In this document: piece after piece, positions 14,050 through 21,878 of the stretch
Position numbering within the stretch: the stretch's first letter is position 1
How the letters are laid out: each line of letters starts with the position of its first letter
Source of the DNA: Promethearchaeota archaeon
Lineage (GTDB): Archaea > Asgardarchaeota > Hermodarchaeia > Hermodarchaeales > Hermodarchaeaceae
Reading direction: 5' to 3'
Length of the DNA stretch: 64,000 nt
NCBI GenBank assembly: GCA_048938385.1
Contig: JBHLMG010000008.1
Span: 1 to 64,000 of the forward strand
Program-made: the position numbers and the translations under genes
Notes under the pieces: generated by a model
Told to the model about the DNA's origin: nothing
The model's input: the letters and a program-made list of their open reading frames with translations, nothing else
The model's database searches: none

Positions 14050-14730
14050 TTATTCTAAAAAAGTTACAATGCGGGAAAAGATCCTCTTCCATGCACCCTG
14101 GCTAAGCCGTCCGGTTTGTGTGTTTTGACGACTAGGGTGATAAGACGCTATCAAGATTGGACTATCACGAATTTCATAAGTTTTGCCATGCTGAAAAGTT
14201 GGTTTCGGTCGAGAAGCTGGATAAAGATAACGTAGACAGACATCAAACGCAATGTGACCAAGGGCTAAGATCACTTTGATGTTCTTCAATAATCTCCACT
14301 CCTTTAGCAGAAAATCACTACAATTAGTAATCTCTTGTGAGGTAGGACGGTTCTTCGGTGGAGCACACCGAACGGGTGCCGTAATAAAGGCATCACGCAA
14401 GATGAGTCCATCATTCCGGCTCTGGCTTATAGGTTGATTCGAAAAACCTGCATCGAAGAGGGCTCTTATCAACCAATCTCCAGAACTGTCGCCAGTGAAC
14501 ATTCTTCCAGTCCGGTTCCCTCCATGGGCTGCAGGTGCTAAACCAATAATGAGTAACCGACCATTAACATCTCCAAAGCCAGGTATGGGTTTCCCCCAGT
14601 ATTTTTCCTTCTGAAACCGTCGAACCTTAGTTTCTGCCACTGCATGGATATAATTTACAAGGCGTGAACACCGATGACATTGTATAATATGTCGGTTAAG
14701 CATCTCCCAATTAGAGTTATTTTTTACCAT
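14050..14730 (-). CDS. udgB: Uracil-DNA glycosylase family 5 (UdgB)
   Basis: CxxC, GLAPAAHGGNRTGRMFTGD, RCAPP.N.P, HPSRQNT. Confidence 0.92.
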   Translation of the reverse strand: MVKNNSNWEMLNRHIIQCHRCSRLVNYIHAVAETKVRRFQKEKYWGKPIPGFGDVNGRLLIIGLAPAAHGGNRTGRMFTGDSSGDWLIRALFDAGFSNQPISQSRNDGLILRDAFITAPVRCAPPKNRPTSQEITNCSDFLLKEWRLLKNIKVILALGHIAFDVCLRYLYPASRPKPTFQHGKTYEIRDSPILIASYHPSRQNTQTGRLSQGAWKRIFSRIVTFLE

Positions 14731-16459: not shown

Positions 16460-16651
16460 GAAGCTAGGTCTGATGGATGATACATAAGCATTTTTTGTTG
16501 AGCTTCAATGTTGTTAATCGCAATTCTCATGGGATTATTTGCAGTAGAATAACTCCCGGAATTGATTTTTTATCAGATTAGTTCGTGCGGCTAGATTTTA
16601 AAACAAGTTATACACTTTCGCGCATCAAACTACTCCTCTGGAGGAAGAAAT

Positions 16652-17290
16652 ATGGCTGGAGAAGAATTACTCGTCTTTTGGATTATGGCTGCGATCTTTG
16701 GTATCGCAACTGTGATGTTTACCTTGCTTTCGTTCCGTTCTGGAGCGCATCAATTTCTTTCCTTCGTTGATATTCTTGTTGCCTTCATAACCACTATATC
16801 TTATGTTCTGATGGCCCTTGGCTTCCTAATGGTGACCTCAAGTTACCTTGAACCAATATATTGGAGCCGTTGGCTATTTTACATGGCTAGTTGTAGCCTT
16901 CTAACCGTATCGGTCGCTGTCATTCTCAAACAGACACACACTGTCACGCTTTCAAAAATTCCGATCTTGACGATGCTTGTAATGTTCTGCGGTTTTTTGG
17001 CGGCTTTTATCACAACTGTTGAGCGCTGGTGGTTCTTTGCGTTCAGCTCTATTGCCTATGTTGCCCTCCTCATTACACTATTCAAAGGTGTACCCCAGGA
17101 AGGGATGAATTCACAAATCATGTGGTTTATTCTCATCTTTTGGTCACTGTTCCCTCTAGTGTTCGTCCTTGCACCAACAGGCTTTGGGTTGATTAACACA
17201 CTCATCGCGGTCATCTTGTATGCTGCCTTAGATGTGATAACGAAAATCATCTATGGGCTGATCATTCTCTTCCGCGTAAAGGAAGCATAA
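16652..17290 (+). CDS. Schizorhodopsin-type microbial rhodopsin (variant FSS motif)
   Basis: 7 TM, 212 aa; helix C YWSRWLFYMASC, helix F FWSLFP, helix G LDVITK with retinal Lys198; SD GGAGG. Confidence 0.9.
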   Translation: MAGEELLVFWIMAAIFGIATVMFTLLSFRSGAHQFLSFVDILVAFITTISYVLMALGFLMVTSSYLEPIYWSRWLFYMASCSLLTVSVAVILKQTHTVTLSKIPILTMLVMFCGFLAAFITTVERWWFFAFSSIAYVALLITLFKGVPQEGMNSQIMWFILIFWSLFPLVFVLAPTGFGLINTLIAVILYAALDVITKIIYGLIILFRVKEA

Positions 17291-17513
17291 CTGATCCGAA
17301 AAATTCCTTGGAATTCAATGGCGTTAACTTGCAAGTAGTGAACCTGCTTTTATTCGGGGGCGATATTTCGATAAATAGCCGTCTCATGGTATTTGATTAG
17401 ATAGTTTTTTAATAAGAAGAATATTTATATAGTACTTACAATCTTAACACCGTTAATACCGAGAATGATTGAACATCACCATCCTCGGGTCAAAATTCAA
17501 GGATGGATGTGAA

Positions 17514-17915
17514 ATGGAAAATATTGTAAAAATTGCAAAAGATGCAGGCCAGTTTAACACCCTGTTAACGGCTGCAACCGCGGCTGGTCTAGCCGAAACA
17601 TTGTCAAATGATGGACCCTTTACGGTTTTCGCCCCAACAGATGATGCATTTTCAGCACTTCCAGAAGGCACGATTGATGCGCTTTTAAAAGATACTGAAA
17701 AGCTGAAAACAATTCTCCTCTACCATGTGGTGGCAGGGAAATACAAGGCTGAAGAAGTCGTCAGTCGGGATGAACTCAAAACTGTCCAGGGTCAGAGCAT
17801 CCATATTGACGCCACTGACGGTGTCAAAGTTGATGAAGCACGCGTTATCAAGGCTGACATTGAAGCTGAGAACGGCGTGATCCATGTCATCGACAAAGTA
17901 ATACTCCCTAATTAG
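17514..17915 (+). CDS. Fasciclin (FAS1) domain protein
   Basis: FTVFAPTDDAF, ILLYHVV, NGVIHVIDKVILP; ATG at 17514; no signal peptide. Confidence 0.95.
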   Translation: MENIVKIAKDAGQFNTLLTAATAAGLAETLSNDGPFTVFAPTDDAFSALPEGTIDALLKDTEKLKTILLYHVVAGKYKAEEVVSRDELKTVQGQSIHIDATDGVKVDEARVIKADIEAENGVIHVIDKVILPN

Positions 17916-17995: not shown

Positions 17996-18460
17996 GTGAT
18001 CGGTATGGTTATGCCTAAAATAGATCGGTTAGCACCTGATTTTACAGCTCCCACCGATGCGGAATCGGATTTAACATTAAGTCAACTTCGTGGAAATATC
18101 GTGGTTTTGTATTTTTATCCTCGTGCTGGTACTCCAAGTTGCACAAAAGAGGCCTGCTCCTTCCGTGATAATATGATTCGCCTAACGGGAATGGGCGTTA
18201 AAGTGGTTGGTGTAAGCACTGATAGTGTTAAACGACAAGCTGGGTTCAAGGAAAAGAATGCCCTGCAATTCCCACTAATCGCAGATAAGGAACAACGAGT
18301 TGTTAAGCTCTATGATGTTCTTAAACCTGAAACTGGTTCTGCTCAACGAGCCACATTTCTAATTGATCGTGAAGGAAAAATACGATTTATCTGGCCGAAG
18401 GTACGAGTCCCAGGGCATGTCGACGAAATCATCGCAAAAATCCAAGAACTAAAACTCTAA
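17996..18460 (+). CDS. bcp: Peroxiredoxin Bcp/PrxQ
   Basis: YFYPRAGTPSCTKEACSFRD, GVSTD, RATFLID. Confidence 0.93.
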   Translation: MIGMVMPKIDRLAPDFTAPTDAESDLTLSQLRGNIVVLYFYPRAGTPSCTKEACSFRDNMIRLTGMGVKVVGVSTDSVKRQAGFKEKNALQFPLIADKEQRVVKLYDVLKPETGSAQRATFLIDREGKIRFIWPKVRVPGHVDEIIAKIQELKL

Positions 18461-18491
18461 AATAACATCGTTAAAGGCTTTGGGGTTACGA

Positions 18492-18950
18492 ATGGCAAGA
18501 CTCAAACCAGAAAAGCTGAATGTACGCGTTATTCCTCCACTCCCACTAGTCGGTTTACATTTTCCTCGTCGCTACACACTCACTCATTCAGATCGAACTG
18601 GTGACCTTTTTCTCACAATAGGACAAGACTACGATTATTCACAAATCAAAGGTTGGTACACGAAGTTGATGCGAGATGAAGTTCTTGCTGAAATGGTTCA
18701 AGAAAAAGAACGAATCGCTCTTCATGTATATTGTCAAGTTAGTCGTGGGTTAGGCACACGAGGGTTCCGTGAAACCATTTTCAGGCGAGAATTACCTCTT
18801 GTGCTAGAAGCTATTCGCCTTGGAGATCGTGAACTCTTTGATAGAGAGCCACACTTGGATCAATTAGATGTTCTAATTCATTTTTGTACAAAAACACCAG
18901 AGAATGACATTGTCGAGAACTGGGGTCCAATAAGTCAATATAGGATCTGA
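18492..18950 (+). CDS. STAYGREEN-family protein (Mg-dechelatase homologue)
   Basis: PRRYTLTHSD.TGDLFLTIG, MRDEVLAE, IF.RELPLVLEAI..GD, WGP. Confidence 0.9.
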   Translation: MARLKPEKLNVRVIPPLPLVGLHFPRRYTLTHSDRTGDLFLTIGQDYDYSQIKGWYTKLMRDEVLAEMVQEKERIALHVYCQVSRGLGTRGFRETIFRRELPLVLEAIRLGDRELFDREPHLDQLDVLIHFCTKTPENDIVENWGPISQYRI

Positions 18951-19037: not shown

Positions 19038-20753
19038 TTAATGTGCGTGTTTGAGGGTTTTTTCTAACTTATCCGATGCTAGTGTATTTATCACCGAATT
19101 CGATTTCACCCATCCTCGGCGGGCAGTTGCGACACCGTAGATCATCGCATCCAGCTGTGAAATTTGATGGGCATCACTGTTGATGGCGAGCTTGACATCC
19201 TTTTCTTGGGCAAATCGGGCTGCTGTGTCCGGTAAGTCAAGGCGATCTAAGGCATTGATTTCGAGTGTAATATTGTAGCGTTTGGCTGCGCTGCATAATT
19301 CATCGAGATTGACCTCGTAAGCTGGTCGTTGGGCCACAATTCGTCCTAGTGGATGGGCTAAAATATCTACGAATTGATTTTTCATTGCTTGGATTAGCCG
19401 ATCAGTCATTTCTTCTTCAGAAGCTTTAGTCCTGTAGTGAAGAGCTGCAACAACGAGGTCTGTTTCAGCTAAGACTTCTTTGGTAAGATCTAAGCTACCA
19501 TCTGAAAGAATTTCCACTTCTATTCCGGCGAGAAGATGTAAACCTCGAATTCTTTTATTCAGTGTGCGAATCGTAGCGATTTGCTCACGGAGTTTCTCTT
19601 CATCTAGACCGTGTGCAATCCGTATCTGTTTGGAATGATCACAAATACCTAGGTATTTGTAACCACGCTTCTGAGCGGCAGTGGCCATCGCTTCAATTGT
19701 GTCGTTACCGTCACTCCATTTAGTGTGTACATGAAGGTCGCCCTGTATATCACTAAGGGTAATCAGGGTGGGTAATTGCTTCCTAAGTGCAGCATGAATT
19801 TCACCGGTATCCTCTCGAAGCTCAGGAGGAATCCATTTCAATCCCAGTTTTTTGTAAATCTCTTCTTCCGACGAACCTGCAATTCTTTGATTTGTTTTTT
19901 GATTGAAAAGTCCATACTCGCTTAGCTTCCAACCATGTTTCAGCGCAAGGCGACGAAGTTCGATGTTATGTGTCTTTGAGCCTGTGAAGTACTGTAATGC
20001 AGCTCCAAAGGCTTCGAGTTCAACTACTCGGATATCTACCTGAATGCCATCCTCTAGCATGACGCTTGATTTTGTTATTCCTTGTGCTAGCACTTGAATA
20101 ACTGAAGGGAGGCTTACAAATCTTTGCATGATGGGGAGGGGGTCATCAGACGCTACGAGTATGTCGATATCTCCTACAGTTTCTTTCCAGCGTCGAAGGC
20201 TACCTGCGATCTCGATTTGTTTTACTTCGGAGAGCCTGCTAAGCTGTGTTTTTATTCGCTGAGCGATAGGAGCTGCTTTCCCAATGAAGAAACGCTCTTT
20301 GTATTGAAGGAACAGCTCTAAATTGTGCCGGATATTCTCTTCCGACCGTTCGCCAAAGCCAGGAAGATTGCTAAGTTGATGAGATTCTAGGGCTTGTTGG
20401 AGTTGTCGAATATTTTGGACACTTAATTTATCTCGTAGCAGCTTCGCCGTTTTTGGGCCGATACCAGGTATGGCTAATAACTCCACGAGATCGCTAGGAA
20501 GTCCCTCTCGAAGTGAGTCAAGGTATGTGAGTTTGCCTGTATTAAGCAGCTCATCTAATTTCTTTGCAATTCCTTTCCCAATACCAGGAATCTTTTCTAG
20601 CTCTCCACGCGCTGCAATATCTTGGAGACTTTCAGATAAACCTTCAATAGATCGAGCAGCACGACGATAGGCTCTTGGTCGAAACGATACCTCCTGTAAT
20701 TCTAGCAAGTCTGCAATTTCATTAAGAACCTTGACGACTTCTTTGTTTTCCAT
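19038..20753 (-). CDS. polX: DNA polymerase X / PHP 3'-5' exonuclease
   Basis: HhH motifs; [27 protein letters not shown]; PHP motifs DLHVHT, DHS, SDAH. Confidence 0.95.
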
Positions 20754-21032
20754 AACCTTACACCTATAACTGGCAAAACGCTCTATTCAGTAATAGGTAG
20801 TGATCATCTAATTAAACGAGTTTGGCGGTTCATTCTTTACTATCTCGAGGTTTATGTTCTTTTATTCTATATGCAATTTAAAATGTCTCGAAATTAACTA
20901 CATTTTAATCAATGATTACGTGCACAAGGAACCTATGATGCTGGCTTAAGTTTGCAAGGCATTTATTCATTTCACAGTATTTTTCTATTTAACCATGAGT
21001 TTCGAGTATACTTCTGGATTGGGGGTGAAAAC

Positions 21033-21878
21033 ATGATCGAATTACCTGAGGCTATTACTATTGCGAGACAAATTAACGAAGAACTAAAAGGGCATGAAAT
21101 TGTGTTTGCTCAACGAGGATATTCACCTCACAAATTTGCCTTCACCGGTAAATATTCTCACGAAGAGTTTGCTAGAATGGTGCCAGGTAAGACTATCGAT
21201 GGAGCCCGAGCGGATGGATGGGTAATCTTACTTGATTTAGAACCTGGCTATCTACTTAGCTTAGGTTGTGGTGGAGAACGGATACTATTTCACGAGAATG
21301 AAAAAACCCTGCCTAAGAAACACCAACTCATACTGGGCTTCCATGATAATAGTTATCTCACGGTCACTATTACTGGATGGGGTGAGGTTCGGCTGCTCGA
21401 ACAATCTGACCTCTCTAATCATCCACACATTAAGAAGGATGCAATCTCACCCCTCAGCAAAGCCTTCACTTTCGATTACTTTAACAAGCTGTTCGATTCG
21501 TTACCAGAAAAAAAGCAGACACAGCAAACCAGTGCTAAATACTTCATCATCAGCGAACCCGGCGTTTGGGGGGTCGGCAACGGATGCCTGCAGGATATTC
21601 TCTATCGTGCTAAGATTCATCCCAAACGCCAAATGCTGAGTCTCTCAGCCAATGAACGAAAAACTCTATATCATGCAATTGTGCAGACCCTTACCAAAAT
21701 GGTGGAGCTTGGGGGAAGGGACAGCGAGTATGACCTTCACAATCAACCAGGTCGCTATAACCGAATCCTTCAAAGCAAAAGCGTGGGTCAATCCTGCCCA
21801 GAATGCGGAGCCCTGATCGCCAGGATTTCCTACCTTGGTGGAACTGTTTACTTCTGTTCCTCCTGTCAGGTCGAGTAA
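21033..21878 (+). CDS. Fpg/Nei family DNA glycosylase-like protein
   Basis: N-terminal MIELPE, H2TH GVGN..QDIL..AKIHP, C-terminal Zn finger CPEC...CSSCQ; SD GGGGTGA. Confidence 0.88.
   Translation: MIELPEAITIARQINEELKGHEIVFAQRGYSPHKFAFTGKYSHEEFARMVPGKTIDGARADGWVILLDLEPGYLLSLGCGGERILFHENEKTLPKKHQLILGFHDNSYLTVTITGWGEVRLLEQSDLSNHPHIKKDAISPLSKAFTFDYFNKLFDSLPEKKQTQQTSAKYFIISEPGVWGVGNGCLQDILYRAKIHPKRQMLSLSANERKTLYHAIVQTLTKMVELGGRDSEYDLHNQPGRYNRILQSKSVGQSCPECGALIARISYLGGTVYFCSSCQVE

Follow-up and report, generated by a model that had tools for sequence, protein, structure and literature searches.

A clade of Hermodarchaeia schizorhodopsins with serine at the E81 position and its possible proton release through a helix-B aspartate

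Proton transport by archaeal schizorhodopsins (SzRs) is held to depend on a carboxylate of TM3, as the E81Q mutants of SzR1 and SzR4 do not transport and E81D does (PMC7148096, PMC8040798). [quoted passage not shown] Glu or Asp occupies this position in 58 of 63 SzRs (PMC7148096), so exceptions were already seen in 2020, without discussion. We analysed a window of 64,000 nucleotides (the whole stretch of DNA under study, from a Promethearchaeota archaeon of the class Hermodarchaeia) that contains a schizorhodopsin gene with the motif FSS. Because a Glu or Asp regarded as pump-essential is replaced by a conserved Ser, this protein tests how SzRs release protons. The case bears on whether the release charge can lie on helix B, whether a redundant carboxylate permitted the loss at the E81 position, and whether there are sensors within the family. 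Thorarchaeial SzRs were listed at the discovery of the family without functional comment (bioRxiv 10.1101/385732), and our literature search found no paper characterising an archaeal FSS SzR. An earlier, sequence-only reading of this DNA had named prior characterisation of FSS SzRs as grounds for refuting its proposal, and no such work came up for the archaeal proteins.

Family assignment and the residues of helix C

The gene (P0001) lies at 16652..17290 on the plus strand, as do all codons given below, and encodes 212 amino acids followed by a stop codon. Its ATG start is downstream of GGAGG, a Shine-Dalgarno-like motif that we read in the sequence at 16640..16644 on the same strand, its last base 7 nt 5' of the ATG. 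The product matched the Pfam family Bac_rhodopsin (PF01036, 6e-23). Its best solved relatives by sequence were SzR4 (7E4G, 1.6e-30) and AntR (Antarctic rhodopsin; 9OR2, 5.5e-27), and the next solved matches were sensory rhodopsin II and bacteriorhodopsin (BR), at about 1e-10. The AF2 model, which drew on 59 homologues, had seven helices and a pLDDT of 94.3. Foldseek returned SzR4 as its best match (TM 0.89/0.96, rmsd 1.3-1.7 A), with the AntR crystal structures next. In a tree of 131 rows, the protein was placed in the SzR clade, apart from other type-1 rhodopsins, with a support of 99 for the split between SzRs and the outgroup. Sequence, fold and tree thus all give a schizorhodopsin, as the sequence-only reading had assigned it. 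The photochemical core is intact, and the product is predicted to be a functional, light-sensitive membrane protein that binds retinal.

We re-read the codons and helix C residues reported in that reading and found them correct. Helix C runs R73-W-L-F76-Y-M-A-S80-C81-S-L-L-T-V-S87, so that the BR D85/T89/D96 positions are F76/S80/S87, and D194, K198 and D40 are intact. In the printed pairwise alignments, Ser87 (codon TCG, 16910..16912) stands opposite E81 of both SzR4 and AntR, and the absence of an acidic residue at the D96/E81 position was therefore borne out. The alignment with SzR4 further pairs R73, F76 (TTT, 16877..16879), Y77, S80 and C81 (AGT TGT, 16889..16894) with R67, F70, Y71, S74 and C75, the last two of which are both essential for transport in SzR4 (PMC8040798). 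L84 pairs with L78, the counter-ion D194 (GAT, 17231..17233; BR D212) with D184, and the retinal Schiff-base lysine K198 (AAA, 17243..17245) with K188. The protein thus has the type-1 rhodopsin fold of seven transmembrane helices with an invariant Schiff-base Lys on TM7, the RWxF(Y) motif on TM3 (R73-W74-L75-F76-Y77) with a single counter-ion, and Ser, Cys and Leu at the positions of BR T89, T90 and L93.

SzR4 and SzR1, the reference inward H+ pumps of Asgard archaea, share with our protein the fold, the TM3 residues R, F, Y, S, C and L, the W and P of TM6 and the D, T and K of TM7, and they differ in overall sequence (about 33% identity) and at four sites: E81 against Ser87, N34 against Asp40 (GAT, 16769..16771), T195 against Ile205, and E95, a conserved cytoplasmic Glu, against Lys102 (AAA, 16955..16957). 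Asp40 lies in the cytoplasmic part of TM2, and its position is that of D40 in MtSzR (bioRxiv 10.1101/2025.10.20.683367). A compact build (about 200 aa) and a TM6 that is short on its cytoplasmic side are typical of SzRs. In the model of our 212-aa protein, TM6 spans residues 151 to 173 with P168, which leaves about 17 residues from the Pro to the cytoplasmic helix end; the corresponding published lengths are 13 for SzR4 and about 21 for the remaining type-1 rhodopsins (PMC8040798). The ICL3/TM6 region is 3 residues longer than in SzR4.

The FSS clade and the history of positions 87 and 40

We searched 5.8 billion proteins and obtained 105 relatives. The 38 clusters nearest to our protein, at 71-89% identity, derive from MAGs that carry the labels Hermodarchaeota, Hermodarchaeia, Thorarchaeota or Promethearchaeota, and every one had F/S/S together with R73, C81, D194 and K198. 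Among the full-length clusters, Ser at the BR D96 position, the change that defines the clade and where the canonical FSE and FSD pumps have Glu or Asp instead, was found in 37 of 37, and position 40 was Asp in 36 and Glu in one; S80, C81 and L84 were invariant. The 37 sequences were monophyletic in the maximum-likelihood tree of 131 rows (SH-aLRT 99) and nested within the core archaeal SzR clade (also 99), where the remaining members are described as FSD or FSE. In the genomes sampled, the FSS clade does not extend beyond a single genus-level group of Hermodarchaeia.

The deviation from the motif in the literature would, taken alone, point to an error of sequencing or assembly at codon 87, or to a pseudogene. 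Across nine genomes, codon 87 was TCG, TCT, TCC or TCA, that is, all four TCN codons, and this synonymous turnover indicates that serine itself has been maintained. The median dN/dS over the same nine genomes was 0.06 at a dS of about 1.6, showing strong purifying selection, and no stops or frameshifts were found in the rhodopsin gene of 11 genomes. In addition, contigs from two other studies (sediment and mangrove metagenomes) span codons 40 and/or 87 and are identical there. With the motif present in 37 clusters, an artefact or a decaying gene has practically no chance of being the explanation and was rejected; the sequence-only reading had likewise held a base error unlikely. These results showed that the gene is real and its product under selection. 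The FSS clade is a natural, clade-wide and selected replacement of Glu or Asp by Ser in archaeal SzRs, and the sister proteins that have the residue (FSD with D40, and the solved MtSzR) are an ideal comparison set.

The nearest outgroups of the FSS clade in the tree were P0039 and P0040 (FSD, D40, I205), P0042 (FSD, H40) and the group with MtSzR (P0043; YSD, D40, I205). Since the nearest FSD sisters and MtSzR already have D40, Asp40 predates the change of Asp87 to Ser. In the ancestor of the FSS clade, the cytoplasmic carboxylate of TM3, an Asp87 like that of MtSzR and the FSD sisters, probably gave way to Ser.

The sequence-only reading had suggested that Glu to Ser at position 87 might co-vary with Asn to Asp on helix B. 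Parsimony counted at least three losses of carboxylate 87 within the core clade (in the FSS clade, in an FSN clade with 8 rows, and in one FSV sequence), and all three losses fell on a D/E40 background, a pattern whose chance probability is about 0.08. Over 92 rows, 46 had an acid at 40 only, 20 at both positions, 26 at 87 only, and no row was without an acid at either position. The independent-pair test of 87 against 40 gave p = 1, and position 40 was mostly unchanged where 87 changes. Co-variation was thus rejected, leaving a weak "permissive background" pattern, and because D40 is ancestral, no change from Asn to Asp occurred on the FSS branch. The related premise that SzRs have Asn at this helix-B position holds for SzR4 (N34) and fails for the family: residue 40 varies among E, H, D and N in archaeal SzRs, and in the bacterial (AntR-like) clade it is mostly A. 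Bacterial-clade proteins of the FST, FSS, GSS and GSV types have A or P at position 40, and D/E40 is therefore not generally required where the carboxylate is missing. That a pre-existing second carboxylate made the loss at 87 tolerable fits the data and is only suggested by them.

A second profile search for SzRs added 33 sequences and no further independent loss in the archaeal clade. The FSN rows were P0059, P0070, P0073, P0076, P0078, P0079, P0084 and P0085, one of them labelled [Eubacterium] cellulosolvens, and the FSV row was P0091. The AntR-like clade held many FST, FSS, GSS, GST, GSV and GSH proteins (P0116, P0117, P0122, P0126, P0129-P0133, P0137 and others). Reviews present the "FSE" motif as more universal than it is.

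Proton release through Asp40 and its alternatives

Solved relatives show what surrounds the acceptor. In MtSzR (Methanoculleus taiwanensis, cryo-EM), two water molecules link D40 to the acceptor D87, and salt bridges keep the acceptor of MsSzR in place (bioRxiv 10.1101/2025.10.20.683367). MtSzR is 55% identical to our protein, has the same residue numbering, belongs to the same core archaeal clade, and shares TM2 D40, TM7 I205, the hydrophobic cap region, the single counter-ion and the lysine. It differs in having Asp87 (YSD), water-bridged to D40, where the FSS protein has Ser87, and it keeps E102, S44, S118 and F201, all four of which have changed in the FSS clade. The FSN and FSV SzRs resemble the FSS clade as independent losses of carboxylate 87 within the archaeal-type core clade with D/E40, but they are separate lineages (about 50% identity) that keep E102, F201 and S44.

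A helix-B acid replacing E81 is already known as a proposal for AntR. AntR E81Q transports like wild type, and the TM2 Asp D30, hydrogen-bonded to Y193 of TM7, was proposed as the substitute charge (PMC8040798). Furthermore, "GSS_AntR" is cited among expressed bacterial-clade inward pumps (bioRxiv 10.1101/2025.10.15.682728). Inward pumping independent of the TM3 carboxylate, which the sequence-only reading had offered as a different route, thus has precedent. AntR (9OR2, 9ORK, 9OT0) and the FSS clade both have a TM2 Asp and a TM7 Tyr; D30 corresponds to position 34 here and Y193 to position 202, and these sites are distinct from those of D40 and Y201. AntR and GSS_AntR differ also in belonging to a distant bacterial clade (about 35% identity), and AntR itself retains its Glu. 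The loop position opposite D30 in the pairwise alignment is Gln34 in our protein (CAA, 16751-16753) and Glu or Asp in 36 of 37 clade members.

Our favoured reading, to which we assign roughly one chance in two, is that the FSS protein still carries H+ inward, with D40, which was already present, supplying the charge for release. By the family's "untrapped release" route, the Leu84 gate would open after isomerisation of retinal, and the Schiff-base proton would exit to the cytoplasm via water. The negative charge drawing the proton out would be TM2 Asp40, one helix away, in place of residue 87, and Ser87, the new Ser37 and Tyr201 may provide hydroxyls for the water chain. The deprotonated state of D40, its succession to the role of residue 87 and pumping as such are our inferences. 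This reading is favoured because all transport-critical residues other than E81 are invariant, because the D40 site contacts residue 81/87 in two solved SzRs, because the ancestor had both acids, because three independent losses kept the TM2 acid, and because AntR demonstrates that a member of the family can pump in the absence of the TM3 acid. Against it stand the failure of E81Q in SzR1 and SzR4, the only archaeal SzRs tested (PMC7148096, PMC8040798), the chance level of the three-loss pattern, the pair test, and the A/P40 of the bacterial proteins.

The other substitutions of the clade also bear on the choice. Comparison of the 37 FSS rows with 55 other core rows revealed 22 positions fixed differently in the FSS clade: G12M, E/N27S, F37S, x38F, S44A, L58F, D/E87S, E102K, A104P, G108M, S118A, Y/F141I, G151, N153, I156L, V160I, W171F, L191A, V195, F201Y, T/S206L and x207F. 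An extra residue at position 98 lies outside this set. By the helix limits of the AF2 model, the cytoplasmic half holds 16 of the 22, against about 46% of the residues. It lost three acidic residues (27, 87, 102) and two conserved hydroxyls (44, 118), and gained Lys102 and three hydroxyls (27, 37, 201); the TM7 end became more hydrophobic. The hydroxyl of Ser37 lies one turn below D40 on the cytoplasmic side, and that of Tyr201 (TAT, 17252..17254), which replaces a family-wide Phe (SzR4 F191), lies one turn cytoplasmic of K198. Apart from W171F (BR W189 position), the retinal pocket and extracellular half are in essence as in pumping SzRs, and W171F is shared with the FAD (MsSzR-like) clade and the bacterial clade, both of them among those with pumps. 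The residues S80, C81, L84 and D194, whose mutation abolishes transport in SzR4 (PMC8040798), are clade-invariant, and R73, F76, Y77, W164, P168, T197 and K198 are likewise kept.

The loss of E27 and E102 (now Ser and Lys) and of the S44 and S118 hydroxyls counts against release through D40, as it lowers the negative charge and polarity on which the release model relies, and it resembles the way in which sensory rhodopsins shed pump-specific residues. Sensory rhodopsins are likewise without the D96 carboxylate, with Ser at this position in Anabaena sensory rhodopsin and Phe or Tyr in SRII and SRI. A photosensor or signalling rhodopsin is the main alternative, one that we regard as possible and less probable than D40-based transport: net H+ transport would have been given up, and a long-lived photointermediate would signal light directly or via a partner. 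Together with the loss of the carboxylate required in SzR1 and SzR4, the E27S and E102K changes and the concentration of substitutions in the cytoplasmic half speak for it. The continued invariance of the transport-critical S80, C81 and L84 speaks against it. So does the conservation of the cytoplasmic loops, which showed no extra constraint of the kind expected for a partner surface: the ratio for the loops relative to the TM core was 0.72 in the FSS clade and 0.51-0.74 in the FSD, FSN and FAD clades.

A further alternative is some other light-driven activity, such as a weak or leaky H+ conductor or channel, transport in another direction or of another ion, or a pigment for photoprotection through local pH or redox change. 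Changes of pocket and pathway beyond S87 (W171F, L191A, V195, F201Y, G12M) are in its favour, and the physiological role of inward pumping is unknown across the family (bioRxiv 10.1101/2025.10.15.682728). We consider it improbable, since the clade retains F76 and D194 as its single counter-ion, the surroundings of the Schiff base have gained no charged or polar residue that would bind another ion, and W171F also occurs in clades that include pumps.

Xenorhodopsins also pump H+ inward, with acceptors on helices B and G (H48 and D220 in NsXeR) (PMC8040798, PMC13739731). They and Anabaena sensory rhodopsin belong to unrelated type-1 branches (about 17-20% identity) that retain the D of BR D85 and have Pro in place of BR D212, and the likeness implies no homology of acceptor sites.

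Genomic setting of the rhodopsin gene

The source genome (2.48 Mb, 89.8% complete) has one type-1 rhodopsin, the FSS gene. A heliorhodopsin search gave no match in this genome, though the search was weak, as it gave none in control genomes either. Among the 19 genomes of the class, 11 of the 15 in the genus had exactly one rhodopsin, always FSS (79-100% identity), and none of the 4 in the sister genus had any. In the window, the rhodopsin is followed on the plus strand by genes for a fasciclin-domain protein (17469-17915), a Bcp-type peroxiredoxin (17996-18460) and a Staygreen homologue (Mg-dechelatase family, PF12638, 6e-42; 18480-18950), all of which travel with the rhodopsin in several relatives. 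Staygreen is 3' of the peroxiredoxin in 4 of the 5 relatives' loci with the fasciclin-peroxiredoxin block, L014 being the exception.

The rhodopsin of relatives (L007, L010-L014) lies at the edge of a photoprotection island. The conserved order is the gene of an ATP10-like protein, rhodopsin, optionally fasciclin, peroxiredoxin and Staygreen, then photolyase, followed by a Pyridox_ox_2 protein, Fer4/FixC-like genes, crtI and crtB. The island of the source genome is on another contig (L021:4564-15060, G000:C25) and comprises photolyase, Pyridox_ox_2, Fer4/FixC-like genes, crtI, crtB, a crtD-like gene, two UbiA prenyltransferases and a CruF-type Caroten_synth. Judged by sequence, the carotenoid genes of this Asgard archaeon resemble a set for making bacterioruberin-type C50 carotenoids. 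Gene order indicates that rhodopsin, fasciclin, peroxiredoxin and Staygreen relocated as a block into the window, where they are flanked by an AAT/C45-family gene and PolX/Fpg. A sole rhodopsin tied to photolyase, carotenoid and peroxiredoxin genes bears on the physiology of inward pumping in Asgard archaea.

The same setting lends some weight to light sensing. The rhodopsin is the only one detected in the 11 genomes, and in relatives it lies within a light-related island beside photolyase and crtI/crtB. In each of the 7 relatives with enough contig 5' of the rhodopsin, the ATP10-like gene precedes it by about 110 nt in the same orientation (e.g. L012:7436-7891, P0287). The ATP10-like gene encodes a soluble, thioredoxin-like protein (PF05176; 150-157 aa, 152 in the conserved order) in which no redox Cys motif was seen. 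It occurs in 10 of 11 rhodopsin-bearing genomes of the class, the exception having its opsin at a contig end, against 0 of 8 rhodopsin-less ones. Anabaena sensory rhodopsin, with its Ser at the D96 position, has a soluble partner encoded adjacently. If the FSS protein were a sensor, its signal would control the linked photoprotection genes (photolyase, carotenoid synthesis, peroxiredoxin), a scenario that we hold possible and, like sensing itself, less probable than transport. More doubtful still is the fuller claim that the clade is the first sensory schizorhodopsin, switching on the island, possibly via the ATP10-like protein. The same low confidence attaches to an Asgard light sensor having evolved from an inward pump by shedding its cytoplasmic carboxylates.

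Several observations weigh against sensing. No transducer, MCP, Htr, kinase or regulator domain was found fused or adjacent to the rhodopsin, among its neighbours here and in relatives. In the source genome, the ATP10-like gene (G000:C25:94043-94492 = L021:4029-4502) adjoins photolyase on a different contig from the rhodopsin, and its product is more diverged (63% identity, against 75-84%). The co-occurrence of the two genes may reflect presence or absence of the whole island in related, incomplete genomes. Prediction of a complex between the rhodopsin and the ATP10-like protein scored 0.00 with "no answer", which counts neither way. As for the chromophore, searches of the genome (89.8% complete) detected neither an RPE65-type carotenoid oxygenase (PF03055) nor a lycopene cyclase (PF18916), and no Blh/Brp (PF15461) emerged from a search that was weak, having given no match in control genomes either.

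DNA-repair genes surround the rhodopsin block in the window: a UDG-superfamily glycosylase (14050-14730), PolX with a PHP domain (19038-20753) and Fpg/Nei (20952-21878). PolX or Fpg homologues also occur near the opsin in L008 and L014. These surroundings fit a theme of light or oxidative damage. On contig C25, a Ras/Roc-family small GTPase (L021:850-1401) and a TackOD1-domain protein (L021:1415-2317) adjoin the carotenoid and photolyase island.
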